Positions 32,432-47,616 of a stretch of DNA of 64,000 nt are shown piece by piece. Numbering within the stretch: the first letter of the stretch is position 1; each line of letters opens with the position of its first letter. Position numbers and translations under genes: made by a program. The stretch lies in NCBI GenBank assembly GCA_020241125.1, contig GCA_020241125.1_4708.1; one strand, 5' to 3'. The DNA comes from a phage. The notes under the pieces are model-generated. The model saw only the letters and a list, made by a program, of their open reading frames with translations, was not told where the DNA came from and did not search any database.

Positions 32432-35044
32432 TTAAGCGTCCGGCGTAAAATCAAAAGGAATGTCCGTACGAATGATATCATAACGTTTTCCGAGGAAATA
32501 AAACTCTTCGGGAACCTGACCGGGAATAATGCTATCACCGATGAACTGCGGATACGCCCAGATGTACTGAGTGAGTCCTTCGAACATATCCAGGTTATTT
32601 GCGTGGTTACCCATGATACGTTTCCAGAGTTCGCGTTTATACGGCGTTTTAACATCGAAACCATAAAGCGGTGCAAGATCTTCACCAGGAACAAATCCCA
32701 GGTAATAGTGAATCTGACTAACCGGGAAACCAAGCGTATCTCGCGGAATGGTGATCGCTTGCTCAGCTTTGGTGACATGCGTTTCAATAATCCAGTCGTA
32801 ACACTCTGAATAGAACCGATCGAATTTCTCTGGATTATACCACGCTTTGGGAAGATTCAGTTTCTCCGTGAACGCATTCGACATGATCGTCGGTAAGAAC
32901 GGAAGAACACCGGTTTTGATCTGCGTGTATTTCGATTTTACCCGGTTAACCAAATTCCAGCAACTGTATCCTAACTGTTCGTTACAAAACTCAACGTAGA
33001 GATCGTAATCACCGCCGGATAATGGGTTGTTGATATCACCAATGTCTGCAGCGTATTTGTTGGGATATCGGTTATTGAAAGCCAGTTTGGTTTGGTAATC
33101 GTAGATACACGGTTTGTTGTTCGCTGTATTGATCCACCACCAGGGTTCACCCACCTGTACACAAATGTCCTGGACATGAGGGTAAATAATATCGGCAAAC
33201 GCGGTTAACACATCCCCTAACCACGCCATCGCCTGTTGGTTACATGGAGACAGCAACCAGGACGGTGGTGTATATCCGGTTGCTGCGATGTTTCCTTCCC
33301 AATCCTGCTGCGCCCACTCGAACGGGCAGGCTGTACTCATCAATTCGTAACTTAAACTGATGGTGACAGAGAAATGGTGTTTTGCAGCATATGCGGCGAA
33401 AGCTTCATGCCACGCGATACAGGGTGGATTTAATACATCCGTGGTGTTCACCAGTAACTTACCCGCACTTGGCGTCCAGACAGTATCGTAGAAATGCGAC
33501 ATTCCAACATAATGCACTAATTCATCTTGATACCCCGCATAAACCAGGTTCTCAAATACACGCTCTGGCGTGATGTTGTAATGGTCATCGTAAGCGGTTA
33601 TCGCACGAAGTTCGTGTGGTGTACAGTGGTGACGATTAACCGTCATTTCCTGATACACCCCATCGATAGGAAGAATCTCGAGGGTTAAACCGAGGTCGAT
33701 TGGCGTTTCCAGATAGGTCGTTTCAGTCGCACCTTCCTTATAATGTCGAGAACTCATGCTGAACATCAACGATGCTACCGATTCGAGTTCGATAGGCTCG
33801 TCAGCATAGAACCCCGCCATTGCGTCATTGAAATCGATCGTTACGATTGCGCTTCTACCGTCTTCAGAGACATCGGTGGCGTATCGGGTTAATGAGATAT
33901 ACTGACGGCTATCGTCTTTGTGTACGACGGTTAAAACCGGCGGGTTTTCGGTATCTGCAAAGTTACGCTGATCGCCAGTAAACGTGATCTTCGCTTTAAA
34001 GATCAAACCGAATAACGACGTCATGGGATCATACGCAATACAACCGTGATCCAGCGTATCCGTTGTCCGCCATTCTATCCCGACCAACCCGTTAGCGGTA
34101 TGGCATCGCATATACGCATTAAGGACCATGTCTTCACTGACAACCGCGAAGTTCTCTGTTGACTGACCGTTGATAATCCAATACATCGGTTGCCAGAGGT
34201 TACGCGTACCTTTTGCGTAGCGGTAGGTTGGTGCGCCTTTAGGGTTGCCGTTATTGAGATGGAATACGGCAGTACCTTGATAATGGTCGTTCGTATTAAT
34301 CGGAACACTGTAAGCGTCACCGAGGTCCGTACGTTCCACCTTCGTGACCGTTGCGTTTTCAAATAACCCACGCAACGCTGGTAAACCGATATCTTCAGGC
34401 GCGTTTTCTCGACGAATCGCATCCGCGATGCGATGGGCTAAGGCGGGGTAAATAGCTTCACCCTGTTGTAGGTTTGCAAGACCTACAAAGCGATCAGGGT
34501 CGATACCAGCAATCAATAACTCAACATCACCCTTCGTTCTATCGTCGTTAAGATATTTCAGTCCGGTAAGGTCAAGATGCTGAATAAGCGACAACAGGTT
34601 GTATTTACGGTTTTCAACAGTTAGTACAAGATCGCCTGCCCAAACCAAACTTCCCTCATCCGCTGTTACTTTAACGGATTGTCGGCCTGTGGTAGACGTT
34701 GTTGTCGTTTTATTTAATTGTCCTTGTAGGAAGTCGGTTGCGAGGTCAAAGGCAATACCGTAACGGTCAGCGACCGCTTGCATGATTTCACGTAACTGGG
34801 TATCTTCTTCAATGATAATCTTGACAGGTATTCCCAGGAACGCTTTAGCGAGGTCTCGTTTAACCAACGAGACGAATACGGATTTGTAGTATCGGCTTCC
34901 ATCTTTCCCTTTAAAAAGAATGGAGGTTGTTTCGGGTGCCGATAGAACACGTGCAAATTCAACATCGTCGAAAGTAAGAGAAAGTCCGTTTTTCTCGTTG
35001 GTCAATCTTAGTATTTCATTTTGCGCGGTTTCATGTAACTTCAT
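32432..35044 (-). CDS. Receptor-binding protein (tail spike/fibre) with shared N-terminal anchor domain
   Basis: 870 aa; N-terminal ~110 aa (Y..VKRDLAKAFLGIP..I....YGIAFDLATDF) homologous to N-termini of the 40698, 41384 and 46786 products. Confidence 0.55.
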   Translation of the reverse strand: MKLHETAQNEILRLTNEKNGLSLTFDDVEFARVLSAPETTSILFKGKDGSRYYKSVFVSLVKRDLAKAFLGIPVKIIIEEDTQLREIMQAVADRYGIAFDLATDFLQGQLNKTTTTSTTGRQSVKVTADEGSLVWAGDLVLTVENRKYNLLSLIQHLDLTGLKYLNDDRTKGDVELLIAGIDPDRFVGLANLQQGEAIYPALAHRIADAIRRENAPEDIGLPALRGLFENATVTKVERTDLGDAYSVPINTNDHYQGTAVFHLNNGNPKGAPTYRYAKGTRNLWQPMYWIINGQSTENFAVVSEDMVLNAYMRCHTANGLVGIEWRTTDTLDHGCIAYDPMTSLFGLIFKAKITFTGDQRNFADTENPPVLTVVHKDDSRQYISLTRYATDVSEDGRSAIVTIDFNDAMAGFYADEPIELESVASLMFSMSSRHYKEGATETTYLETPIDLGLTLEILPIDGVYQEMTVNRHHCTPHELRAITAYDDHYNITPERVFENLVYAGYQDELVHYVGMSHFYDTVWTPSAGKLLVNTTDVLNPPCIAWHEAFAAYAAKHHFSVTISLSYELMSTACPFEWAQQDWEGNIAATGYTPPSWLLSPCNQQAMAWLGDVLTAFADIIYPHVQDICVQVGEPWWWINTANNKPCIYDYQTKLAFNNRYPNKYAADIGDINNPLSGGDYDLYVEFCNEQLGYSCWNLVNRVKSKYTQIKTGVLPFLPTIMSNAFTEKLNLPKAWYNPEKFDRFYSECYDWIIETHVTKAEQAITIPRDTLGFPVSQIHYYLGFVPGEDLAPLYGFDVKTPYKRELWKRIMGNHANNLDMFEGLTQYIWAYPQFIGDSIIPGQVPEEFYFLGKRYDIIRTDIPFDFTPDA

Positions 35045-35066: not shown

Positions 35067-35708
35067 TTAAATGTACTGCTTACCGCCCACGAAGGAAGTT
35101 AACCAGTTCCCGCTGACGAGTTGTGATACCCAGCCTGGAACGGCTCTACCATTCTGGCTCATGATGTTACCACACCAACCAGGGAATCCGGGACGGATGT
35201 AATAGAAAGTTAAATTGTAGAGATGGCAATTCCATACCGCAACGTTATGTTTACCAGAAACCGCTTTAAAGACAAACGCGACAGGTAACGGAGACGATAA
35301 CAATTCGGTCACAGGGACGGCTGACCAGTTCGCATTCGCGTTCCATGGTTGCCAGGTATGGCTGCGCGAGTCGCAATATACGTTACCGTTGTTACCGCGC
35401 CCACCCGCATTCCACCACAGCGACGGACTCATGTTCTTAAGTGAGGTAAATTGCTGCGGTGGAATATTAGGAATAATAACAGGGTTGGTACCTTGCCCAT
35501 GTTTCTTTTCTTTTGCGTTCACATACCCGCTTATCGATTCGAGGTATTTGACACCAGGATAATTATTCTGGACTTGTGTCGCAATATCACGAACATCGAA
35601 CGTCCAGCAGATCATGGTGTTGTAGTAAGCATCGGTGTTGTCGTACCATGCGTTACCATCTTGTAAACGTGCGCCACTATTCGGTGTTTTATCTGTGTTT
35701 ATAGCCAT
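35067..35708 (-). CDS. Hypothetical Trp/Asn/Gly-rich protein, paralog 1 (conserved C-terminal module)
   Basis: 213 aa; C-terminal ~45 aa (RPGFPGWCGNIMSQNGRAVPGWVSQLVSGNWLTSFVGGKQYI) nearly identical to C-terminus of 35820..36572 product. Confidence 0.55.
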   Translation of the reverse strand: MAINTDKTPNSGARLQDGNAWYDNTDAYYNTMICWTFDVRDIATQVQNNYPGVKYLESISGYVNAKEKKHGQGTNPVIIPNIPPQQFTSLKNMSPSLWWNAGGRGNNGNVYCDSRSHTWQPWNANANWSAVPVTELLSSPLPVAFVFKAVSGKHNVAVWNCHLYNLTFYYIRPGFPGWCGNIMSQNGRAVPGWVSQLVSGNWLTSFVGGKQYI

Positions 35709-35819: not shown

Positions 35820-36572
35820 TTAAATTGAAGTTAGATATTGTTTACCTCCAACAAACGACGTTAACCAATTACCTGAAACAAGTTGCGATGCCCAGCCAGG
35901 CACTGCCCTACCGTTCTGGCTCATCACGTTACCTGCCCATCCCGGAAAACCAGGTCGGAAAATATATACTTGAATATGTGTTAAAGCGTTATCATTACCA
36001 CCGCCAACAGCAACGTTACGACTCCCAGATGACGGGAAATATTCTTTTAAGAACAGAGGATCGGTTGCTAATAAAGATGCGGGCCAAGGGTTCGCGGATG
36101 CATCAACATCGAATTCGGTCCATCGCCATTTACGTCCCGTGTCGAACCATGTCGATGTACCACCACCCCTCACGGCAAGATTGCGCGCATCACGGACATT
36201 ATAAATTGATTCGATGTTACGCCATCCACCTTTTGCAGCGTTTGCTGCATAGCAAACCGCATTACCACCATTCTTCTTCTCGTAAACGGTTCGTTTGATA
36301 TGAACACGGTCGATGAACGCTTCACCGTATTTGTTGACGAGCGTTTGTGCGATATCACGAAGATCGTGCATGTGAAAAGCGATGTCTTCGTTATGGAACC
36401 ATGTTGTCTGGTTCCAGACGGTACCGTTTGGTTCGGCACACATCGATCGGATATTGTTGCGTTGATTAATCGCGATAAAACCCATTGTATACCTCGTTCC
36501 TATTCTCAAAAAGGAAATTTCATACGATGACGCCATAGCAGCTCCTCCTTCCCTTACGGGTTGGAGGAGCAT
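35820..36572 (-). CDS. Hypothetical Trp/Asn/Gly-rich protein, paralog 2 (conserved C-terminal module)
   Basis: 250 aa; shares C-terminal module and DVRDIAxxVxN-Y motif with 35067..35708 product. Confidence 0.55.
   Translation of the reverse strand: MLLQPVREGGAAMASSYEISFLRIGTRYTMGFIAINQRNNIRSMCAEPNGTVWNQTTWFHNEDIAFHMHDLRDIAQTLVNKYGEAFIDRVHIKRTVYEKKNGGNAVCYAANAAKGGWRNIESIYNVRDARNLAVRGGGTSTWFDTGRKWRWTEFDVDASANPWPASLLATDPLFLKEYFPSSGSRNVAVGGGNDNALTHIQVYIFRPGFPGWAGNVMSQNGRAVPGWASQLVSGNWLTSFVGGKQYLTSI
36541..36570 (-). terminator. Conserved palindromic hairpin (member 9)
   Basis: CATAGCA-GCTCCTCC-ttCCCttacGGGtt-GGAGGAGC-ATAC. Confidence 0.55.
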
Positions 36573-36578
36573 ACTTAA

Positions 36579-37085
36579 TTACTCGCTGATAACCTCAACG
36601 GAATTGGGATCAGCGATCATCGCACGGTCAGTAGAACAATTGAAGAAGACCATGCCGACACCATCGCCGTTCGAGTTCAGGGTTGAACTTACGTAAGACA
36701 GGGTTGGTTTATTCATGCGGTAGAAGCGTTCGCTGGTTGCGGTATTGAACCCCAGGTCAACGTAGTCTTTCACCGTGGTGTACAACTGTGTGGACTCGAA
36801 AACGGTTACCGGAGAGTCGACGGTAAATTGACTACCTTCGTCTACAACCAGAACTTTATCGTTCCAGATTTCAGTGGTTGAGAACTTCGGTTTCCAATGT
36901 TCGAATTCCTGGGTTGCACCCCAGCAAGAATACACAGCGAGATTGCTGTTCTTCTCAACAGGTTTCAACCCCACCAGTTGTGTCAGGTCTTTATCCAGGT
37001 TCGGTAAGCCTTCCAGCGTAGCACACCCACCCAGAGAAAGTACCATCAACATACCAAGAACGATCGCACAAAGTTTCTTCATCAT
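36579..37085 (-). CDS. Putative lipoprotein
   Basis: 168 aa; N-terminus MMKKLCAIVLGMLMVLSLGGC is a classic signal peptide with lipobox (LGGC). Confidence 0.6.
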   Translation of the reverse strand: MMKKLCAIVLGMLMVLSLGGCATLEGLPNLDKDLTQLVGLKPVEKNSNLAVYSCWGATQEFEHWKPKFSTTEIWNDKVLVVDEGSQFTVDSPVTVFESTQLYTTVKDYVDLGFNTATSERFYRMNKPTLSYVSSTLNSNGDGVGMVFFNCSTDRAMIADPNSVEVISE

Positions 37086-37133: not shown

Positions 37134-40100
37134 TTACTTTTTGAGCGCTTTAAGTTCTTCTTCCATCGCTTCCACTTTTGCCGTAAGCTTCTGTACTTGT
37201 TTGATTAATGGAACCACCAAACGTTCGTACATAACACCTTCGGCGACGAGTCCGTTAGAAGAAACGATAGCGGGGTCATCTTCTTCGGTTGCATCACGCC
37301 AATGCACGTATTGTGGTGCGATCTCACCAACCTCTTCGGCAATCAACCCATACCAACCCCAATCCTTGTTGTCGGCTTCGCAGGTAGAACGATACCAGAC
37401 AGGACGCATCTCCAATACTTTATCCGCTTGTTCATCCGTGATATTCTCGATATCTTTCTTATAGCGCCGCGACGACGTTGAACGAAACACATTGTTGATC
37501 CCAGCAGTAGGACTGATATACATATTAGCCCCGCTGGTTGTAGTGCTAATGTCCCATACCGCAAATCCGCCGTTACTCCCATTTCTCACGACCAACGTAT
37601 TGGCAATAATATCCAGGTTATTGTTGTAACCGGTTAACTGGTTTTCGGTGACAAAATCGGATAAGTTAACGGAGTAGTTCTTGCTGTTATAACAACGACG
37701 CCATCCTGGGCTGTTGGTGCTGCCATTATAGTTGTCGTAGCTATAAATGAACTCGGAGTTGGTTTTCGCACCACTGACGGAAGACGTGGTTGCGGTGGTA
37801 ACACGGATAGTGTAGTTCGTCATCCCGAAGCTAACGACCTCGATAACCGCACCAGCCAGAGGAATAATACCACATTTGGTTTCACTGTCTGGGATGTATG
37901 CGCTATCGGCAGCAGCGAAGGAGCAACGTGCGACCCAGGCACGGGTATTGAATGCACCTTGGTTCTGTAATAACGTAATAAACGATGAGGTCGTAATCGA
38001 GCTGTTATTATCACCTGTGATCAACCAGCCGGTTGGACATGCGGTAGCACCAACGTTTTTCGCTGTTAGCGTGATGTTCTTCGATCCGTCGAAGGCTACG
38101 CCGCTGATGGTACGTGCAGTCTGTAGCTTCGTCGCCGTTGCCGCGTTCCCTGATGTGTTCTGGTTGCCTGTTGTATTCACACCCGGGATACTATCCTTAG
38201 ATGTGTAGATCTGTGCCCATTCCGACCATTTCGCATCGGTTGAATCACGACGTGAACGTAGGTAAGCTGGAGCGTGTGCACCCGAGGTACCTGACCATCC
38301 AATGAGGATTTCACCTTCGCCGACCGATGAAGCGCCTTTAAGATGAACAACGTTACCGTAGGCTGTAGGGTATCCGTTATTGTACGCTTCATACATCTGG
38401 ATACCCGTATTGCTGCCCTGGGTCGCATTAGCTAAAGCGGTAACCCGTCCCTTGGAAGCGAGCACGTTAATGCTAAAGCTAATATCGGTTGTACCGTCAA
38501 AGGCGACCCCATTAATCCTCCGCGCTGTTTGGAGTTTCGTGGCAGTAGCCGCATTACCAGAGGTACTCTGATTGCCTGCTTTGTTCACACCTGGTAAATC
38601 AATGTTGGCGGTTCCATCAAAGGACACGCCCCCTATGGTTCTCGCCGTCTGAAGTTTTGTTGCTGAACCAGCGTTTCCGGAAGTGCTTTGATTACCCGTC
38701 GCGTTGACACCTGGTAGGTTAATGCTAGCAGAACCATCAAAAGAAACTCCACCGATCGTAATAGCTGTTCGCAACTTCGTGGCTGTCGCAGCGTTACCCG
38801 TCGTATTCTGATTACCAGCTGCATTGACGCCAGGTAATGCGATATCAGCTGTGCCATCGAACGCGACACCTCCGATTTTACGGGCGGTTTGTAGCTTGGT
38901 TGCTGTAGCAGCATTACCGCTGGTATTTTGCGTACCGGCTTTATTTACACCAGGAAGATCGATGTTAGCAGAACCATCGAAGCTGACGCCACCTATCGTT
39001 CTTGCAGTAGCAAGTTTAGCGGCTGTAGCAGCGACGTTACCGACTTTTAACCATTCTCCCCATGGACCATCCACACCGTTCCATGATGCCGTTAAACTGC
39101 GCACGTATATGTTTCCTGTACGTACTGTGTAACGTTGTGTTCCACCGAATTGACCGGCTGGGAGCACTTCGATGTAACCTACAGCATTTGCTTCAGGGAA
39201 ATTGTGGGCAGCATCGGCATTCGTTGATGTTTGTTTGGACCAAATACCCACAGACGCTTCAACCGGACCGTAGGTATCCAGATTTGCATCGGTGGGGAGC
39301 TGTCCTCGAAAACGTCGGAATAATGAAGCCGATAACCCCAACGTTGTTTGCATCCCTTCAATGCTTGACTGCGATAGAAGCGCCCGAGCTGTCGACGTGA
39401 TGGCCGCTAAAGCAACCTTATCCGTACCGGTAAAAAACGGGAATTTGTTTGCTGATGTTGCTAAACCTGAAAGGGCGGTCAGTAATGCGTTAAGGGGTTG
39501 TTTCCCGGCTAGCGCGTTAGTCACAGTCGTTGCAAAGTTTGGATCATTACCTAACGCTTGAGCTAACTCGTTAAGCGTATTTAGCGCTTCTGGAGACGAG
39601 TCGATCAGCGACGCGATAGCACGCATCACAAATTCCGTGTTGGCGATCTGTTGACTGCTATCGTTCTCTGCAGCCGTAGGTGCTGCTGGGATACCGGTGA
39701 ACACAGGGTTATTAAGATCCGCCTTAAGGGCGATGAGACGTCTAAGTGCTTCAACATCGACTTTCAGGTTTTCCCATCCGACGAGATAACCATCACCGGT
39801 TGTGTGATAACGGTTGTACCAAAAATCGCCATTAACGCCAAAATAAAATATTCCCTTCTCTTCGTATTGTGGGCCAGAACTGTTCCGTGATGAGCTAATG
39901 TATTTTATTTCGATAAGGCCGTTGAATACCACTCCTGGGATAATTTTGTCGTTTCCAGACGATTGCGATACCTGGTAAGCCCCCGGTGTTGTGGCTCTAA
40001 CCCAAGTCAAGAATTCTGATGTTCCAGCGTTACCGCTAAAACGCTTGACGTCGGTAAGTATCGCACCAAAACCGAACATACCGGGTAAAGCAACTCGCCC

Positions 40101-40691
40101 ATCGGTACGGTCACGAATATCTGTTGCAACAACAGGCAACTGCTTACGAACATCATTAACTGCTTTAGGTGTCGCTGATTTTGTCTCATCGTCGCTATCG
40201 ATATCACTGCTCAGGATGGTCAGTCCTCGAGTATCTGTGGTTGCATCAGGAAGAAACGCGTTATCTAACACCTTAAGCTGTATCGCATCCGTGTTATTAA
40301 CAACAACATACACTTGACAGTTAAGAACGCTGGTTGCGCCTTCGGTAGGCACAGGCTTGTATCTTTCTGGTGCACTGCATACGGCGACCAGAACACCTTG
40401 ATTGTCATACAGACCGATCTCACGTACCCAGAACCCACCTTGACTGGCAGGAATAATACCCTCAACAATAATCCTGGTTGTGTCGTCAACATCAATACGG
40501 ATGTTGGAAACTTCCCCACGATAAACTTCGTGTACAAGTGCTGTTTGGCTAGCATCGGGGGTTGGTGTAGAACCGTTGCCATCACCAACGGCAAAATGCG
40601 TAATTCTTAGTTTCTCACCGTCAGGAAGTAATGCTGCGGTGATACGTTCAGCGCCTTTATCGGTAATGACCGTTTTATAAGTTGTACTCAT
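37134..40691 (-). CDS. Long tail fibre protein with C-terminal intramolecular chaperone (peptidase S74-like) domain
   Basis: 1185 aa; N-terminal region resembles phage tail-fibre N-termini (P2 gpH-like; LIDSSPEALNTLNELAQALGNDPNFATTVTNALAGKQP); about 6 tandem ~38-aa repeats (GGVSFDGSANIDLPGVN...ATATKLQTAR); C-terminus SSRRYKKDIENI...WYGLIAEEVGEIAPQYV...LVVPLIKQVQKL matches S74 chaperone domain pattern. Confidence 0.75.
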   Translation of the reverse strand: MSTTYKTVITDKGAERITAALLPDGEKLRITHFAVGDGNGSTPTPDASQTALVHEVYRGEVSNIRIDVDDTTRIIVEGIIPASQGGFWVREIGLYDNQGVLVAVCSAPERYKPVPTEGATSVLNCQVYVVVNNTDAIQLKVLDNAFLPDATTDTRGLTILSSDIDSDDETKSATPKAVNDVRKQLPVVATDIRDRTDGRVALPGMFGFGAILTDVKRFSGNAGTSEFLTWVRATTPGAYQVSQSSGNDKIIPGVVFNGLIEIKYISSSRNSSGPQYEEKGIFYFGVNGDFWYNRYHTTGDGYLVGWENLKVDVEALRRLIALKADLNNPVFTGIPAAPTAAENDSSQQIANTEFVMRAIASLIDSSPEALNTLNELAQALGNDPNFATTVTNALAGKQPLNALLTALSGLATSANKFPFFTGTDKVALAAITSTARALLSQSSIEGMQTTLGLSASLFRRFRGQLPTDANLDTYGPVEASVGIWSKQTSTNADAAHNFPEANAVGYIEVLPAGQFGGTQRYTVRTGNIYVRSLTASWNGVDGPWGEWLKVGNVAATAAKLATARTIGGVSFDGSANIDLPGVNKAGTQNTSGNAATATKLQTARKIGGVAFDGTADIALPGVNAAGNQNTTGNAATATKLRTAITIGGVSFDGSASINLPGVNATGNQSTSGNAGSATKLQTARTIGGVSFDGTANIDLPGVNKAGNQSTSGNAATATKLQTARRINGVAFDGTTDISFSINVLASKGRVTALANATQGSNTGIQMYEAYNNGYPTAYGNVVHLKGASSVGEGEILIGWSGTSGAHAPAYLRSRRDSTDAKWSEWAQIYTSKDSIPGVNTTGNQNTSGNAATATKLQTARTISGVAFDGSKNITLTAKNVGATACPTGWLITGDNNSSITTSSFITLLQNQGAFNTRAWVARCSFAAADSAYIPDSETKCGIIPLAGAVIEVVSFGMTNYTIRVTTATTSSVSGAKTNSEFIYSYDNYNGSTNSPGWRRCYNSKNYSVNLSDFVTENQLTGYNNNLDIIANTLVVRNGSNGGFAVWDISTTTSGANMYISPTAGINNVFRSTSSRRYKKDIENITDEQADKVLEMRPVWYRSTCEADNKDWGWYGLIAEEVGEIAPQYVHWRDATEEDDPAIVSSNGLVAEGVMYERLVVPLIKQVQKLTAKVEAMEEELKALKK
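38080..39060 (-). repeat. Intragenic tandem coding repeats (~114 bp units) within the tail fibre gene
   Basis: Repeated peptide unit visible in translation; DNA units diverged but periodic. Confidence 0.6.
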
Positions 40692-40697
40692 GGCGTT

Positions 40698-41225
40698 TTA
40701 TCCCGGGTAAATAGTGATGACATCACCGATGACAGTTGCCGCACCGGCGCAAAGATACGCTGGTGATGTATCACGCTGGTTTGTCACGATAAGATCCAAT
40801 TGCCCACGCCAAACCATGGAGGTATTCGCGATGGGAATCGAGATCTTCTTGGAAGTATCGTCACGAAAATTAATGGCGGTAGCAAGGGTAGCTGAATCAA
40901 AATCAACGTCGGGTTCAAAGTTGAAACCGTATTGATCCGAAATAGCTTGAATAACCGCTCTTATGGTTGTTGTTTCAACCGACTCCAAAACGATTTTTAT
41001 CGGTATTCCTAGAAATGCTTTCGCTATATCACGCCGTGTGTAAGTGATAAAACTTTCACCACACCACCTTGTTCCTTCATTTGCTGTGACGATCACTTTT
41101 GCCCTGTTAACACCAGAACTCCCATCCAGGGTTAAAGTGAGATCGGAGTTGCTGAATACACTACTGTTACGTTGGTTTATCAACGTAATAAGTTCGTCTT
41201 TCCATGGTGGGTAAAGTGAACGCAT
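40698..41225 (-). CDS. Short protein carrying only the shared receptor-binding-protein N-terminal anchor domain
   Basis: Start set at ATG 41225 (MRSLYPPWKDE) preceded by GGAGGAGGG; ORF-track start at 41408 would run through the upstream hairpin; product shares RRDIAKAFLGIPIKI...YGFNFEPDVDF with other RBP N-termini. Confidence 0.5.
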   Translation of the reverse strand: MRSLYPPWKDELITLINQRNSSVFSNSDLTLTLDGSSGVNRAKVIVTANEGTRWCGESFITYTRRDIAKAFLGIPIKIVLESVETTTIRAVIQAISDQYGFNFEPDVDFDSATLATAINFRDDTSKKISIPIANTSMVWRGQLDLIVTNQRDTSPAYLCAGAATVIGDVITIYPG

Positions 41226-41338
41226 AAGCGCACCCTCCTCCAACAATCGAATTAATATGCAAAAACGCCTCGAAACAGGAGTGCGATTCGAGGCTAACGT
41301 AAACAGTCTTAACGACCGCATAAAATTCCGCGCATATT

Positions 41339-41371
41339 GCCCCTCTATCCCGACAAAGCGAGATAGAGGGG
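41339..41371 (-). terminator. Palindromic hairpin (member 10)
   Basis: CATATTG-CCCCTCTATC-ccgacaaagcga-GATAGAGGGG. Confidence 0.5.
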
Positions 41372-41383
41372 AGGATAATACGA

Positions 41384-43153
41384 TTATGCTGCTACATATC
41401 CAGGCCAACGTTCTCTTGGCCAGTTTGTTGCGCCCTGTCCAACGTTGTCCTTACCAGAAATTACATTACTTACGTCCCAACCACTAAGATCCTGGTTAAA
41501 TGCGGTGTTGTTACGCATCATGAGGTCGATATTACGTAATGATTGGGTATTCCAGCCGGAAATGTCTTGGTTGAATGCCGTGTTGTAAGCAAACATGTTA
41601 ACAACGTTTTGTAATTTTGAAGTGTTCCAGCCGCTAATATCGCCATTGAACTGCATGCTCGAGAACATACTGCTAGCATCGATAAGACTATCTGTTTTCC
41701 AGTTAACCAGCTTGTTTTCATCAAGTGCGTTGCAACTACTGAACATGTAACTCATGTTGTTAACTTTGGATACATCCCATTTATCTAACCCGTTACCAAC
41801 GAACTCGTAACAAGCTTGGAACATCCAGCTCATGTCGGTAACCTGGCTCACATTCCATTTGCTAAAGTCGAGGTTGAGTTTTGCGCATCCGGAGAAAGTT
41901 TTATACATACTGGTGATACGACTAACATCCCATTCTTGAATGTTAGGATCATTAAGTATAGATAAGAATTGGAACAATCCGTCTAACGACGTCCATTTCT
42001 CTGGAATACGGTTTGGTACTGTACGGAGCGATGAAAGGTTATTGGTTGACGGAGAGCGGAACATACCGTTATCCCAATTTACGATTTCCGTAATGTTGTA
42101 CCCACGGATCGTTTGGCGTCCATTACCATTATACACAGACCCTGTTGCAGTTATTGTATATTCGTTTGTATCAGCATACGTATGTTCAGCCTGTGTAGGC
42201 CACTCACCTATTACATCCCTATTCCCATCACCCCAATCGATGGAAATATTTGTCCAACCATCAAGATCTAGGGTAACGGTCCCGCCATTGGTCTTCAGGA
42301 TGTATTTACCTGCATTGTCGGTATAATAACAAACGATCATCGCACCGTATAGGTTACCAATTTGCCAATCATCCTTTTCTGTTACCGCTATTTGCGCTGT
42401 ACCACGTTGTAAGAAAAGCACCGTACGGTTGTCGTCAGTCTGTAACGCGGTTAATGCTTGAGCTTTGTCGTCGCCGGTAATTTCACCAGCTTCCACTAAA
42501 GCATTTAACATTCTTTCAAAGTATTCGATGGGTAATTGGTGTCCTACAGACATGTCAACTGATGGAAGAATGAGATCATCTAATGCTGCGGCAGTTGCAA
42601 GGACTAATGATCCCTTGGTGGGGTCTGTTTCTTGGAGGTAACGTAGTCCCGTAATCTGGTATGCTTGAATGATTGTAATCAGATCCAGCGTATCGTTAAT
42701 GACCTGTATCTGTAAATGCCCAGACCAAACATAGCTGCTTTCAGCAATTGGTAATTCGACCGCCTGAATACCTGACGTTTCAAAGCTGATCTTTTTATTA
42801 AGATCGGTTTCCAGGAAATCAACCGCGAGATCGAAATTTATACCGTACTTTTCAGCGATGGAATCTACGATGTTTCTGAAAGCAACATCGGTACTTACGA
42901 TAAAACGTAACGGGATTCCTGCAAATGCATTAGAGATATCTCGACGAACATATGTGAGTGACTGCTCGAAGAAATACGGGCTGTTATCTCCAGGCTTGAT
43001 GGTTATCTGGCACACCTCAGGGTGTTCAGCTGGGATGAACGATTCGAATTTAACATCGGATTCTTTCAACGAAAGCTTGTTCTTCCGGTTTACCAACGCC
43101 AGAAGATCGGCTTTCCATCCAGGATAAACTGTAGACATAAGCACTCCAATCAT
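41384..43153 (-). CDS. Receptor-binding protein with DUF285/BspA-like repeats and shared N-terminal anchor
   Basis: 589 aa (start possibly at internal Met MSTVYPGW); N-terminal anchor homologous to other RBPs; C-terminal repeated units FxxxxAFNQDISGWNTxxLxNxxxMF typical of DUF285/BspA-type repeats. Confidence 0.6.
   Translation of the reverse strand: MIGVLMSTVYPGWKADLLALVNRKNKLSLKESDVKFESFIPAEHPEVCQITIKPGDNSPYFFEQSLTYVRRDISNAFAGIPLRFIVSTDVAFRNIVDSIAEKYGINFDLAVDFLETDLNKKISFETSGIQAVELPIAESSYVWSGHLQIQVINDTLDLITIIQAYQITGLRYLQETDPTKGSLVLATAAALDDLILPSVDMSVGHQLPIEYFERMLNALVEAGEITGDDKAQALTALQTDDNRTVLFLQRGTAQIAVTEKDDWQIGNLYGAMIVCYYTDNAGKYILKTNGGTVTLDLDGWTNISIDWGDGNRDVIGEWPTQAEHTYADTNEYTITATGSVYNGNGRQTIRGYNITEIVNWDNGMFRSPSTNNLSSLRTVPNRIPEKWTSLDGLFQFLSILNDPNIQEWDVSRITSMYKTFSGCAKLNLDFSKWNVSQVTDMSWMFQACYEFVGNGLDKWDVSKVNNMSYMFSSCNALDENKLVNWKTDSLIDASSMFSSMQFNGDISGWNTSKLQNVVNMFAYNTAFNQDISGWNTQSLRNIDLMMRNNTAFNQDLSGWDVSNVISGKDNVGQGATNWPRERWPGYVAA
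41416..41956 (-). repeat. DUF285/BspA-like coding repeats (~69 bp period)
   Basis: Repeated SGWN(T/V)S...N...MF units in translation; periodic DNA similarity. Confidence 0.5.
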
Positions 43154-43175
43154 GGGGCGGTAACCGCCCCATCGG

Positions 43176-46100
43176 TTAAATTGTTGGTTTCACGTCGCGT
43201 AATAGGGCAATATAATAGCCTAATCCTCGGAGGATCTCCCCACTCCAGAAACCAAAATACATTCCGTCTCTGCCGAGATTAGTACTATCTGGCGCAGGAC
43301 TCCACCCACCATTCATTACATCGTCAACGGTGTAACGGTTGATGTAGTTCTCAACAATCTCGTTATAAACGTTAACAGCAACAGGATAGCCTTTATCGTT
43401 GGGATGTCCGTACAACATCGCTAACGACGCGCCCGCCAACCATAATCCTGCCATGTGACCAGTAAAGTCATTAGGGATAAAAGCTGGAGGTTTATCCATC
43501 GGAAAATCCGTAGGAGATTGATAAGCGTTTTCCTGTTGATACGTGAACAAGAAATCAATCCAATGACTGATGTAAGTGGTTAACTTCTCGGGGACAGCTA
43601 AACCATGATCGAGCAGTCCAGCATAAAGCCTCACCGCTGAGAAGAAAGCCCTCGGCTGATAACCAGACCATGCTGTCTGATCGCCGAAGTGGTACATCGT
43701 AAAATCGTTGACTTTCGATCCGCTTGGCGCATCCCAACGATCCCACACGTACGCACTTGCACCCGGCCCTAAAACACCGAATTTCTGATGATACCACTGT
43801 TGTGAGTCATACCAGAAATTCACAACATTCTGGATCATGAGGTCACGTCGTTCAGCCGTTACATCCATATCCAGGAAGACCCATGGATGCTGGTAGCCAG
43901 GATAAGGCTGACCACGCCAACTGTCGAACGTCGGTGCGTTAGGGATATAGTTGTTTGAGAACGGAATAATACCTGGAGTATAAGGCAATGGATCTAGACG
44001 CTGGTTAACAATCGTGCAGTCACCAACACGTAACGTACCCTCCGCCTCAAAGGTTGCTTTTAACGTAAACAACATGGTATATCCGTCATCCGTGGCGTAA
44101 GTTGATGGTGGATTGTTGATAGCGTAGAGCTTAAATACCCCTTCAGCGATATCGCCGTCATCAGGCAAGAACAGAATTTCAGTTGAACCATCGCCCCACA
44201 CAGGTGCGGAAGGTTTAGGGTCAGTGCCAGCATGGTTAGGTTGATACCCTGAGAGCGTCCACCCATTCGCCGAAAGTGTCAATGTATTTCTTGCTGTGGT
44301 GGCTGGTAACATCTGCCACCATCGCCAACCATTTGCATCTTCTACACGAACGTTGTAGTCAATCGACGCGAAATAACTGACCTGCCTTACGATCTGTTTT
44401 GCGGTTGGATTGAATTCAAATTGTCCGCCTGCCGCAGTAAGCTGCGCTTTTAAGAACAACCCATCCCAGGAATCTTCCACTGCTTCGCTGAATTCTGTTG
44501 TGATGGCGACATCATCTTTCCAGCCGACTTTATCGGCCGATATCAACACAGAACCTGTAACAGCATCACCGGTTGACGCTGAAGCTTCATCAACCGCATC
44601 AGCAGGAATCAACGAGCCTATTTTGAAATCCCATTCTTTCGGTTCAGCGCTGGAAGGTAATACCAGCTTGTACGTTTTGGCTTTCGCTTCGGTTTTGTCC
44701 AAAGAAAGCGATAATGAGATCTCAACTGGAATTGCAACGCCTGCTGTATCTTTACCTCCGCAGGTTACACGAAGAATTGAATCACGATTGACGCGGAACG
44801 GAATGGCCTGCTGTTCAAGGTAAATTTGTGCTGAAGATGCTTGAATCACGATCCAACCATCGGTATCACGTGTGATTGTGAACGGCGCTTTCGACGGGTA
44901 TGTATACGTGTAAGCGATACCGTCGGTGTCGTAACGATCGGTTCCTTTTACTTGACGGAAGAACTTATCGTTAGCGTCAATACGGGTATATTCTTCAATC
45001 GTAAACAAAGACGCCTTGTACGCTTTCTGATAACGCTCCTGCTGCGTTAAACGGTATAAGGTGTAGGCTGCTTCACAAAACCACTGTTCAGCGTCTGACG
45101 CGTTTCCCATGTAGTCTCTGGTGACCGGCACCTGGATCGGTCGGTTATGCTGACACTCGTTCGTTTTGATAAGGTATCCGCCATATTCAACAGGAACACG
45201 CGGTGCCCATGCAACCAAGTAAGAACCGCTGACGGATTTATTTTTGAGTACGATAGTACCTACTTCATCGTCAGTACACGCTTCAAGATCGTCCCCGTCA
45301 GCACTTACGTAACGTTTTGTGCGTAACGCAACTTTCTCGATAGGGAACACCGTACCCTTTGTATCCCAGTCAATCGTCCCATCATCATTGGTTTTGAACA
45401 CATCGGCGTTCAAATTCTGCCAGCCGAGTTTACCTTCATAGACCTGAACAACAAGATCCATGTATTCCCCGAACGTTGGTGCCCCATGTGTTATTTTCCC
45501 GATACCGTTGGTGAATGTAACCGCTGTGTCATGGAAACCCCCGTGTGTTGGGTAATCGTCTTTTGCAAGAGGATAATGAGCCAACACCGGTTGCTTACCA
45601 TTAACGATCCAGTTAGCGATCCAGCGTGTCGGTGTATCCGGTGGTTCAAGGCCTGCGTAGAACGCTTTTATATACGCATCGAACGATGCCTCTGCTAATG
45701 TGAGATAATGCGCTTTAAGCTTGGTGTTGTCCGTTGTATGACTGAATATACCCGCACCCAGAATTAACAACGACTGTCCTTCTGTTGTTGCGTCACCATC
45801 CGGTTGTGCTTCTTGTCGTGTTGCTGCAATGAAATGACGGTTGTTTACCATGACCCCGCTTTCATTTAACACGTAATGATCGGTTTCTGGGTCGGTAAAC
45901 GTTCCTGTGTTTCGGGTTAAGAATCTTGCATGGCCATAACCAACGAAATTAACCGGCGACGCTGTAATCATCCATTTACCGATAAGTTGAGCAACATCAT
46001 TATAACGCTCGGATGCGGTGATTTGTTTCACGTACCAGTCTTTATGGTTAAATGTCCAAAGCAGGAAGTAATAAGTTGTATCGATTTCCATCACTGGGAA

Positions 46101-46772
46101 CGTCGGCGTTAACGGCTCCAGCGTTAAGTAGTTGCTCCAGTCAATCTGTCCGCCAACCACCGATGGGGTAATCTCTAATAACTGACACCATTCATAACGG
46201 TCCGGTACACTACTGGACGTTGTTGGTAAAGGTAACTTGTATACGCCAGTACGATTCAGATCGAACGCTTTTCTAGCCGATCCTAAATCAACATAAATAC
46301 TCGATGATGCGCTTGCACTATATGCCCCCAAAGCACCTAGCGTTGACCGATACATTGAGATGAACAACGTATCTTTCCAGTAAGGGTTATCCTTGGTTGG
46401 TTCTAAAGCGATTTGTGCGGAGATGCTGTTCCATGTCCCTAACTGGTATGTCGCATTTAAAGATTCTTCTGTGAAATAACTTTCTGCAATCGTCAGATGG
46501 AACTGCTCGTTCAATAACGCGAGTGCGGCGCGGCCAGTAACATCCTCGTTACCGGTTTCTTTTTTCACGATCGCGCCGAACGGAAACAGTGTCGCGAATG
46601 ACCGTTTTGGTTTATTAACCGTAACCGTCCCTGTGTAATTTCCAACACCGTCAAGTTTTTGACTATCGCCAACAGCAGTGACTGCGATACCATCAGCCGG
46701 GATATTTGTTTTATTTAGTACATTGAGTTGGTCAACCAGATCCTGCTTATCGTCAGGTAAGAATGTCGCCAT
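43176..46772 (-). CDS. Hypothetical very large protein (1198 aa), probable tail/baseplate-associated protein
   Basis: Long ORF embedded in the tail-fibre cluster; no recognisable motif; lacks the shared N-terminal anchor. Confidence 0.5.
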   Translation of the reverse strand: MATFLPDDKQDLVDQLNVLNKTNIPADGIAVTAVGDSQKLDGVGNYTGTVTVNKPKRSFATLFPFGAIVKKETGNEDVTGRAALALLNEQFHLTIAESYFTEESLNATYQLGTWNSISAQIALEPTKDNPYWKDTLFISMYRSTLGALGAYSASASSSIYVDLGSARKAFDLNRTGVYKLPLPTTSSSVPDRYEWCQLLEITPSVVGGQIDWSNYLTLEPLTPTFPVMEIDTTYYFLLWTFNHKDWYVKQITASERYNDVAQLIGKWMITASPVNFVGYGHARFLTRNTGTFTDPETDHYVLNESGVMVNNRHFIAATRQEAQPDGDATTEGQSLLILGAGIFSHTTDNTKLKAHYLTLAEASFDAYIKAFYAGLEPPDTPTRWIANWIVNGKQPVLAHYPLAKDDYPTHGGFHDTAVTFTNGIGKITHGAPTFGEYMDLVVQVYEGKLGWQNLNADVFKTNDDGTIDWDTKGTVFPIEKVALRTKRYVSADGDDLEACTDDEVGTIVLKNKSVSGSYLVAWAPRVPVEYGGYLIKTNECQHNRPIQVPVTRDYMGNASDAEQWFCEAAYTLYRLTQQERYQKAYKASLFTIEEYTRIDANDKFFRQVKGTDRYDTDGIAYTYTYPSKAPFTITRDTDGWIVIQASSAQIYLEQQAIPFRVNRDSILRVTCGGKDTAGVAIPVEISLSLSLDKTEAKAKTYKLVLPSSAEPKEWDFKIGSLIPADAVDEASASTGDAVTGSVLISADKVGWKDDVAITTEFSEAVEDSWDGLFLKAQLTAAGGQFEFNPTAKQIVRQVSYFASIDYNVRVEDANGWRWWQMLPATTARNTLTLSANGWTLSGYQPNHAGTDPKPSAPVWGDGSTEILFLPDDGDIAEGVFKLYAINNPPSTYATDDGYTMLFTLKATFEAEGTLRVGDCTIVNQRLDPLPYTPGIIPFSNNYIPNAPTFDSWRGQPYPGYQHPWVFLDMDVTAERRDLMIQNVVNFWYDSQQWYHQKFGVLGPGASAYVWDRWDAPSGSKVNDFTMYHFGDQTAWSGYQPRAFFSAVRLYAGLLDHGLAVPEKLTTYISHWIDFLFTYQQENAYQSPTDFPMDKPPAFIPNDFTGHMAGLWLAGASLAMLYGHPNDKGYPVAVNVYNEIVENYINRYTVDDVMNGGWSPAPDSTNLGRDGMYFGFWSGEILRGLGYYIALLRDVKPTI

Positions 46773-46785
46773 TATTTACTCCACC

Positions 46786-47616
46786 TTAATCGTAACTAAA
46801 ATAAAGTTTGCTGCTGACGCCGCTATCGGAATGAGGTTTTAACACCAGAACAGAGCTTCCGAACGACGGAAGTATTGGAACATCTAAATCGTTCGCATCG
46901 GCAACTTTTCCATTATAAACGACATTGGCTGTTGTGATGAGTTCCCAGGCTAAGGTATAACTCATTGAAATCAGCGACGAGGCTAAACGGAATGCATTGT
47001 ATCCTTCTGGAGTATCTCCAACCGACATCGTACGTATCGCATCTTGCGGCGGTAAATTTAGCTTGATGCCGTAGGTGCTGAATGTGTGGAAATCCCCTTG
47101 TTTACTATCTTCTGGATAATACGAGGTTAGCGGTTCTCGCACCGTAATCAGTTCGCTAATATCGGTACTTACCGCTTTTCGGGCGAGGAATTGAAACGTA
47201 CCGTACCACGATGCTGATGTATCAGAATGAACGGGAACAGCTATGGTTTTCTCGTCGCTTTCAAATTTAACCTGCGACACTAACGCTGAAGAATCAAAGA
47301 TCGTTAAATCGATCTTCAACCCATACTTCTTAAACAGCTGCGTTAAGCAGTCTGCTATCGTCGTCTTATCAGCAACGACAATAAAAGGTTGGTGTTTGAT
47401 AAAGAGCTTATTAATGTCTCGACGTTGAAGATAAACCTGTACGGGGTCTTCGATATAGTAAGCCGATTGTGGTGCGGGGACTATAGAAAGGCGTAACCGA
47501 CCTGATGCACCATACCAGGCTGGCGTTAACGTAACGTCTGACAGAGACAACGGGTGCTGGAGATAGGCGTTTATTTTAGATAACACTTCCTCCTGCCATG
47601 ATGCTTCAGGATACAT
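46786..47616 (-). CDS. Receptor-binding-protein family member with shared N-terminal anchor domain
   Basis: 276 aa; N-terminus YLQRRDINKLFIKHQPFIVV...YGLKIDLTIFD aligns with other RBP N-termini. Confidence 0.5.
   Translation of the reverse strand: MYPEASWQEEVLSKINAYLQHPLSLSDVTLTPAWYGASGRLRLSIVPAPQSAYYIEDPVQVYLQRRDINKLFIKHQPFIVVADKTTIADCLTQLFKKYGLKIDLTIFDSSALVSQVKFESDEKTIAVPVHSDTSASWYGTFQFLARKAVSTDISELITVREPLTSYYPEDSKQGDFHTFSTYGIKLNLPPQDAIRTMSVGDTPEGYNAFRLASSLISMSYTLAWELITTANVVYNGKVADANDLDVPILPSFGSSVLVLKPHSDSGVSSKLYFSYD

Follow-up and report, generated by a model that had tools for sequence, protein, structure and literature searches.

The DNA analysed here is a stretch of 64,000 nucleotides of phage sequence (GenBank assembly GCA_020241125.1, contig GCA_020241125.1_4708.1), referred to as the window, and its segment 36000-56000 matches Escherichia phage vB_EcoM_Goslar at 93% DNA identity over 82% of the 20-kb query. 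A member of the Chimalliviridae, Goslar is a nucleus-forming jumbo phage that infects E. coli, and the source given in its record is duck dung. Our subject is a minus-strand gene of this segment whose product joins an N-terminal DUF7941 module to a C-terminal array of DUF285 repeats; it is thus encoded by a Goslar-like chimallivirus, and it lies inside the tail-fibre/baseplate module. The original prediction, made from the sequence and its open reading frames (ORFs), had taken ORF 41384..43153 for a 589-residue receptor-binding protein built from DUF285/BspA-type repeats. This minus-strand ORF is present in the window, although the start is more likely at 43138, giving a protein of 584 residues; residue numbers below refer to that form. 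The features of the gene, in the direction of transcription, are as follows.

43154..43170, minus strand: G+C-rich hairpin GGGGCGGTTACCGCCCC, -16 kcal/mol, between the stop codon of the gp92-like gene and the DUF285 gene; conserved in Goslar and in a related locus, L004
43139..43153, minus strand: five added codons (MIGVL) of the mechanically called 589-residue ORF, probably untranslated; they contain the GGAG Shine-Dalgarno sequence, and ATG 43153 is in the stem of hairpin 43154..43170
43142..43147, minus strand: Shine-Dalgarno sequence GGAGTG, 3 nt 5' of ATG 43138; kept as an orphan in Goslar
41384..43138, minus strand: coding sequence of the DUF7941-DUF285 protein, 584 residues plus stop, with the most likely start as judged from the ORF and the orthologue starts
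42605..43105, minus strand: DUF7941 module, residues 12-178, an N-terminal globular domain and linker (Pfam PF25613), the presumed filament/baseplate attachment
42425..42607, minus strand: helical connector, residues 178-238, with three helices predicted by AlphaFold2 (178-188, 204-216 and 222-231; predicted local distance difference test, pLDDT, 62-94)
42101..42424, minus strand: beta-rich region, residues 239-346 (AlphaFold2 strands, pLDDT 66-97), the most variable part among the orthologues
42128..42280, minus strand: PKD-like WGDG...HxY motif, residues 287-337, inside the beta-rich region
41441..42100, minus strand: DUF285/PARCEL repeat array, residues 347-566, predicted as about 8-9 turns of a leucine-rich repeat (LRR)-type solenoid
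41387..41440, minus strand: C-terminal tail, residues 567-584, ending ...GATNWPRERWPGYVAA; its last 11 nt survive in Goslar
41340..41371, minus strand: hairpin CCCCTCTATC...GATAGAGGGG, -22.9 kcal/mol, 3' of the stop codon of the DUF285 gene; conserved in Goslar

The start is placed at ATG 43138 because the orthologues (about 50 clusters, nearly all of 584 residues) begin MSTVYPGW, because a GGAG Shine-Dalgarno sequence precedes this codon, and because ATG 43153 is part of a hairpin stem; the real coding sequence is therefore most likely 41384..43138. Three plus-strand ORFs antisense to the gene (41940..42326, 42858..43127 and 41257..41487) have no PHROG hits and are regarded as spurious.

The assignment of the repeats to DUF285 is borne out by profile searches. 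Pfam DUF285 (PF03382) matches in two stretches (E 1.4e-44, 151.2 bits against a cutoff of 25; E 2.3e-46 with the C-terminal fragment alone), and NCBIfam TIGR02167, 'PARCEL repeat-containing surface protein', matches in three (70 bits against a cutoff of 30). Nine W-anchored windows of 25-26 residues lie within residues 347-571, with anchor spacings of 21-27 residues, with a degenerate N-cap as the first window and a C-cap as the last. The array accounts for about 220 of the 584 residues (38%, residues 347-566), not for the C-terminal half that had been claimed, and the repeat motif proposed at that stage, FxxxTAFNQDISGWNTxxLxNxxxMF, is the consensus of repeats 7-8, whereas the core motif of the whole array is FNxDISxW(D/N)(V/T)SxVxxMxxMF. 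The 'BspA-type' label finds no counterpart among the profiles: it comes from NCBI product names only, and neither LRR_5 (PF13306) nor any other LRR model of Pfam matches at E ≤ 0.01 with the whole protein or at E ≤ 10 with the repeat fragment.

The anticipated solenoid is recovered by AlphaFold2, in a model built from a 65-sequence alignment (mean pLDDT 76). The C-terminal 300 or so residues (280-580) have pLDDT values of 83-98, and the repeats are predicted to form a curved solenoid of short repeats, like solved LRR domains; models of proteins from phages N1M2 and Aeromonas D3 (BFVD) are structural matches. The array differs from the canonical LRR domains of XopL (4fcg), BACOVA_04585 (4fs7), LIC11098 (4u08) and internalin A (1o6s) in that identity is 6-12%, no LRR Pfam model matches, and the repeat motif is W/MF-based, not LxxLxLxxN. 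A phmmer search of PDB sequences with the whole protein returned nothing at E ≤ 1.

Ahead of the repeats are three further parts, and the first of these, the DUF7941 module shared with four nearby genes, was overlooked in the original prediction. The match to PF25613 (E 5.5e-20, 72.4 bits against a cutoff of 27) covers profile positions 12-183 of 276; the same residues (12-178) also match PHROG 1037 and 2935, both 'virion structural protein', and the module aligns with its four window paralogues and with Goslar gp161. A profile made from the DUF7941 domains of the window has a single, weak match among PDB sequences, PhiKZ gp127 (E 0.16; PDB 9xqd, PHIKZ127), which with PhiKZ gp126 and Goslar gp22 and gp23 represents the family to which the module belongs. 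Gp22 and gp23 differ from the window protein in being short and filament-forming with no cargo domain; in the window protein the C-terminal DUF7941 subdomain is missing, and about 400 residues are cargo. Within the beta-rich region, D301, W302, G303, D304, G305, H319 and Y321 are nearly invariant in phage and bacterial homologues. A PKD domain at residues 287-337 scored below the cutoff (E 0.066), and the region is called PKD-like here with no claim to membership.

The gene order is the same in Goslar and in the window on either side of the gene: Goslar has gp93, gp92, a gap, gp91 and gp90 (tail fibre), and the window has a gp93-like gene, a gp92-like gene, the DUF285 gene, a gp91-like gene and a tail fibre. 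In the corresponding Goslar intergenic region (L002 ~7070..7276), the upstream hairpin and the Shine-Dalgarno sequence GGAGTG are followed directly by TAGTAGCATAA, which is the last 11 nt of the DUF285 gene with one substitution. Because the orphan Shine-Dalgarno sequence and these 11 nt are retained, Goslar most likely lost window positions 41395..43141 (1,747 nt) in a clean deletion, with TG as the microhomology; an insertion in the window phage is less parsimonious on the same grounds. Goslar is viable without the gene, which is therefore dispensable. Megablast found no match to the gene in complete E. coli genomes, in plasmids or in the phage collection, and only Goslar matches the flanks.

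Assemblies associated with E. coli, and metagenomes, contain orthologues with 74-92% identity, the contigs being up to 235-248 kb long; no locus was confirmed when IMG/VR viral contigs were scanned for relatives. The additional Goslar-like loci were all retrieved with the DUF285 gene as query and, given this ascertainment bias, provide no gene frequency. In every locus examined the gene is at the same site, and its surroundings differ. The gp92, gp93 and gp86 homologues are absent from L004 (GCA_961210045.1, a 235,874-bp contig), and those of gp92 and gp93 from L008, with the DUF285 gene kept in both. L004 (7700..8030) still has the last codons of gp92 (AACCAACAATTTAA) ahead of the hairpin, suggesting that the same locus has undergone another clean deletion, independent of the first. 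The tail-fibre locus thus behaves as a set of exchangeable cassettes. A 573-residue variant, P0060 (L003 324..2045, Logan ERR11019281), has a C-terminal region 78% identical to the DUF285 protein and an unrelated N-terminus that lacks DUF7941, and L003 has no tail-fibre gene between its gp91-like and Caudo_TAP genes; this arrangement could be due to recombination or misassembly.

A second group of relatives, proteins of 483-484 residues with 46-49% identity and about three repeats, is of the Goslar gp161 type, and members of both groups (P0012 and P0055) are encoded on one 235,874-bp contig. The window protein and gp161, which come from the same phage genus, share the order of DUF7941, helical connector, WGDG beta-sandwich and DUF285 repeats and are 46% identical over residues 8-446. 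The window protein differs in being 101 residues longer, with about 8-9 repeats against about three, and in having no counterpart in Goslar, where it is deleted; its gene lies between gp91 and gp92 in the tail-fibre locus, whereas the gp161 gene adjoins an SNF2 helicase gene. The architecture is thus already known from gp161, and public databases already list the orthologues as DUF285/BspA-family proteins. What is new is modest, namely a second, longer class of paralogue located in the tail-fibre locus, together with its clean deletion in the type isolate.

DUF7941 was defined as a chimallivirus-specific family by Basu et al. (2026, bioRxiv 10.64898/2026.04.21.720040), with gp22, 23, 31, 33, 34, 86, 91, 92, 93 and 161 as its Goslar members. 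Purified gp22 forms filaments in negative-stain electron microscopy, AlphaFold predicts head-to-tail DUF7941 oligomers and a network of hetero-interactions, and a PhiKZ gp126-gp127 dimer fits peripheral-baseplate density (10.64898/2026.04.21.720040). Copy numbers are about 580 for gp22 and 2,140 for gp23, and gp161 is found in virions at about 110 copies (range ~74-174, Table S4 of the same preprint). The authors propose that gp86, gp92 and gp161 form part of a 'DUF7941 fibre cloud' and bear carbohydrate-binding, hydrolase or LRR domains for host recognition (10.64898/2026.04.21.720040). Chimalliviruses also inject many virion proteins (10.64898/2026.04.21.720040), and the window protein might accordingly be packaged and ejected, its LRRs acting inside the host in the manner of LRR-bearing type III effectors; but it has no effector domain, and both the DUF7941 module and the location in a tail-fibre cluster point to the baseplate exterior, so that we consider such a role very improbable.

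The ratio of nonsynonymous to synonymous substitution rates (dN/dS), computed against the L004 orthologue (88% amino acid identity, dS 0.63), is 0.11 for the whole protein, 0.08 for DUF7941 (residues 1-150), 0.25 for the beta-sandwich (residues 281-350) and 0.067 for the repeats (residues 351-584). The gene is under purifying selection and is clearly functional. Among 32 orthologues, the variable positions of the repeats are periodic and hydrophilic and alternate with an invariant core of W, M and F; variability is greatest in repeat 6 and at residues 281-340, and entropy is highest in the beta-rich region. The dN/dS values contradict the suggestion of a PARCEL element, selfish or in decay, that does nothing for the phage. 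Such an origin would be in keeping with the horizontal mobility described for PARCEL/DUF285 coding repeats (PMC2996958) and with the absence of the gene from Goslar, but the 50 or so orthologue clusters are nearly all full-length at 584 residues and occupy the same position in every locus examined, and the gene has its own Shine-Dalgarno sequence and flanking hairpins; we regard this as the least credible of the explanations considered.

Strong purifying selection on the repeats would also fit a conserved partner within the phage. LRRs are protein-protein interaction modules, and the solenoid could bind a phage protein, for instance the tail fibre or a different cargo protein of the DUF7941 type, and so cap or cross-link the network of filaments as a structural or assembly component, for which the predicted hetero-interaction network (10.64898/2026.04.21.720040) offers a setting. 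Clean loss of the gene from a viable phage is hard to reconcile with a needed part, however, and the candidate partners (the tail fibre, gp92, gp93 and gp86) vary or are absent where the gene is kept, making this role unlikely in our judgement.

The original prediction that DUF285 is uncommon as a phage receptor-binding domain is only partly fair: the domain is uncommon in phages overall but recurrent in large ones. By tblastn, 116 phage records match, most of them in the DUF285 part; the majority are jumbo phages and cyanophages, and Synechococcus, Lak and Campylobacter phages are represented. In BFVD, 58 viral models match by Foldseek (E ≤ 0.001), among them models from algal giant viruses. 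OBP_145 (L005), AH04 gp144 (L006) and N1M2 gp118 (L007) resemble the window protein in having a DUF285 array in the C-terminal part and a gene beside a baseplate-assembly gene; they differ in their length of 1.7-2.0 thousand residues, and only their DUF285 parts matched. In these three unrelated jumbo phages the DUF285 gene stands beside baseplate-assembly and SbcC-like ATPase genes, in conserved synteny.

The same family of 25-26-residue repeats is found in the bacterial DUF285/PARCEL surface proteins, such as the lipoproteins of Mycoplasma and Listeria and those named 'BspA family' by NCBI, and the pairing of PKD with DUF285 recurs in the bacterial homologues P0061, P0062 and P0066. The bacterial proteins differ in being anchored by signal peptides, lipoboxes or type IX secretion system sorting domains (PF18962), and identity is 28-35%. 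Function of the bacterial domain is largely uncharacterised (PMC2996958).

These bacterial likenesses bear on a further alternative, in which the protein is a virion adhesin for non-host surfaces (mucus, gut glycoproteins or the environment) of the 'bacteriophage adherence to mucus' type, keeping the phage near its hosts and not setting host range. Bacterial proteins named DUF285 or BspA are surface adhesins of host-associated bacteria; Goslar, which dispenses with the gene, came from duck dung; and conservation of the LRR array is high, next to a tail fibre that differs greatly in length and type. Against this, a eukaryotic ligand is purely hypothetical, DUF285 occurs also in marine cyanophages and algal giant viruses, to which mucus is irrelevant, and the preprint favours host recognition (10.64898/2026.04.21.720040). 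We consider an adhesin of this kind improbable, though not extremely so.

The reading that we prefer, with a probability of roughly 0.55, is that the window protein is an accessory virion protein, attached through DUF7941 to baseplate filaments and touching the host surface first with a PKD-like and LRR tip. The N-terminal DUF7941 module would plug the protein, as a monomer, into head-to-tail DUF7941 filaments radiating from the peripheral baseplate; the helical connector and the PKD-like beta-sandwich would hold out the LRR (DUF285) solenoid of 8-9 turns, and the solenoid would be the ligand-binding tip making the first reversible contact with the cell. As a longer paralogue of gp161, the protein would be one of several interchangeable and individually dispensable host-recognition cassettes of the tail-fibre locus. 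The strongest argument for a role in the virion and in host recognition is the presumed DUF7941 anchor, common to four neighbouring genes. Receptor binding, as put forward in the original prediction, is plausible by analogy and from the preprint's speculative model of gp161. Domain architecture, predicted fold, paralogy to gp161, genomic position, purifying selection and dispensability come directly from the present analysis, whereas virion incorporation, filament attachment and ligand binding are inferred.

Several observations weigh against this proposal. First, it draws on gp161 for virion presence and presumed binding, detection in virions being of gp161 only; the authors of the filament and host-recognition model themselves call it speculative, and no DUF7941 density is seen in the Goslar baseplate map (10.64898/2026.04.21.720040). 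Secondly, Goslar infects E. coli without the gene, which can be at most accessory. Thirdly, the LRR array is the most conserved part of the protein, unlike many hypervariable receptor-binding tips, and this weakens the expectation of a fast-evolving receptor-binding tip. Finally, the structural basis for docking is incomplete: the C-terminal DUF7941 subdomain is absent, with the Pfam match ending at profile position 183 of 276, pLDDT is below 50 at residues 53-164 such that the docking surface cannot be inspected, and Foldseek gave no significant match for the model in the PDB.

A stronger version, which we consider less likely than not, would make the DUF285 solenoid a true host-range determinant. 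LRR solenoids are usually monomeric, and the protein would be borne as a monomer on micron-long DUF7941 filaments, as an LRR-based, non-trimeric class of receptor-binding protein; paralogues with different repeat numbers (about three in the gp161 type, 8-9 in the window type) would then recognise different surface structures of E. coli or Salmonella, and the clean loss in Goslar would contribute to the host range of that phage. Should the attachment of an accessory tip to baseplate filaments prove correct, monomeric LRR (DUF285) adhesins on DUF7941 filaments would serve chimalliviruses as host-recognition cargo that can be swapped. The gene is in any case a natural presence/absence variant, carried by many Goslar-like genomes and lost by clean deletion from the type isolate, and as such is a convenient handle on the fibre-cloud hypothesis and on a first function for DUF285, a widespread uncharacterised repeat domain.

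Four other DUF7941 genes lie within 15 kb in the window, all on the minus strand around the tail-fibre gene. These neighbours and the tail fibre are as follows.

46786..47616, minus strand: 276-residue DUF7941 protein, homologue of Goslar gp93 (Pfam E 1.4e-09)
43176..46772, minus strand: 1198-residue tail protein, homologue of Goslar gp92 (phrog_2871 'tail protein', E 6.8e-298)
40698..41225, minus strand: 175-residue DUF7941-only protein, homologue of Goslar gp91 (Pfam E 2e-16; synteny)
37134..40691, minus strand: 1185-residue tail fibre with a Phage_tail_fib N-terminus and a Peptidase_S74 C-terminal chaperone
32432..35044, minus strand: 870-residue homologue of Goslar gp86 (Pfam DUF7941, E 1.6e-43; NCTSP_N, E 1.3e-10; TIM barrel, E 3.4e-85)

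The gp92-like protein has no Pfam match here; its orthologues are on record with a faint DUF7941 match, and Goslar gp92 is listed as a DUF7941 protein (10.64898/2026.04.21.720040). The gp86 homologue is a paralogue of the DUF285 protein by tblastn (37% identity) and has a full-length DUF7941 together with NCTSP_N and a 'non-contractile tail sheath protein TIM barrel'; in the DUF7941 filament system its role is probably that of a cargo which processes glycans. The window tail fibre ends in the Peptidase_S74 intramolecular chaperone and there is no separate assembly gene, whereas the Goslar tail fibre gp90 has 1324 residues and is followed by the Caudo_TAP assembly protein gp89. Tail fibres of the relatives range from 834 to 1,225 residues, showing that the distal fibre is exchanged between close relatives.

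Strong G+C-rich hairpins such as those on either side of the DUF285 gene (-16 and -22.9 kcal/mol) bracket each gene of the cluster and are conserved across the window, Goslar and L004. A terminator scan, which needs a T-run after the stem, did not return 43154..43170 or 41340..41371 as minus-strand sites, but comparable hairpins elsewhere in the Goslar record are labelled putative terminators, and those of the cluster may be terminators or processing sites for a phage RNA polymerase. A sigma-70 promoter scan gave 5 sites against 5.4 expected from shuffled sequence and carries no information, since chimalliviruses rely on RNA polymerases of their own; an Rfam scan of 40500..43500 found no RNA family.

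Beyond the tail fibre are two paralogous minus-strand ORFs, 35067..35708 (213 residues) and 35820..36572 (250 residues), with the common C-terminal motif RPGFPGWxGNxMSQNGRAVPGWxSQLVSGNWLTSFVGGKQY and no Pfam or PHROG match. Goslar has a single copy of this family (gp87), and the second copy in the relatives is variable, at 218-255 residues. Directly downstream of the tail fibre is a 168-residue minus-strand ORF (36579..37085), conserved in all Goslar-like loci seen, that matches phrog_9559 (unknown function) and has a signal peptide resembling those of lipoproteins, MMKKLCAIVLGMLMVLSLGGC...; its position is one that we take to resemble that of receptor-masking lipoproteins such as T5 Llp.

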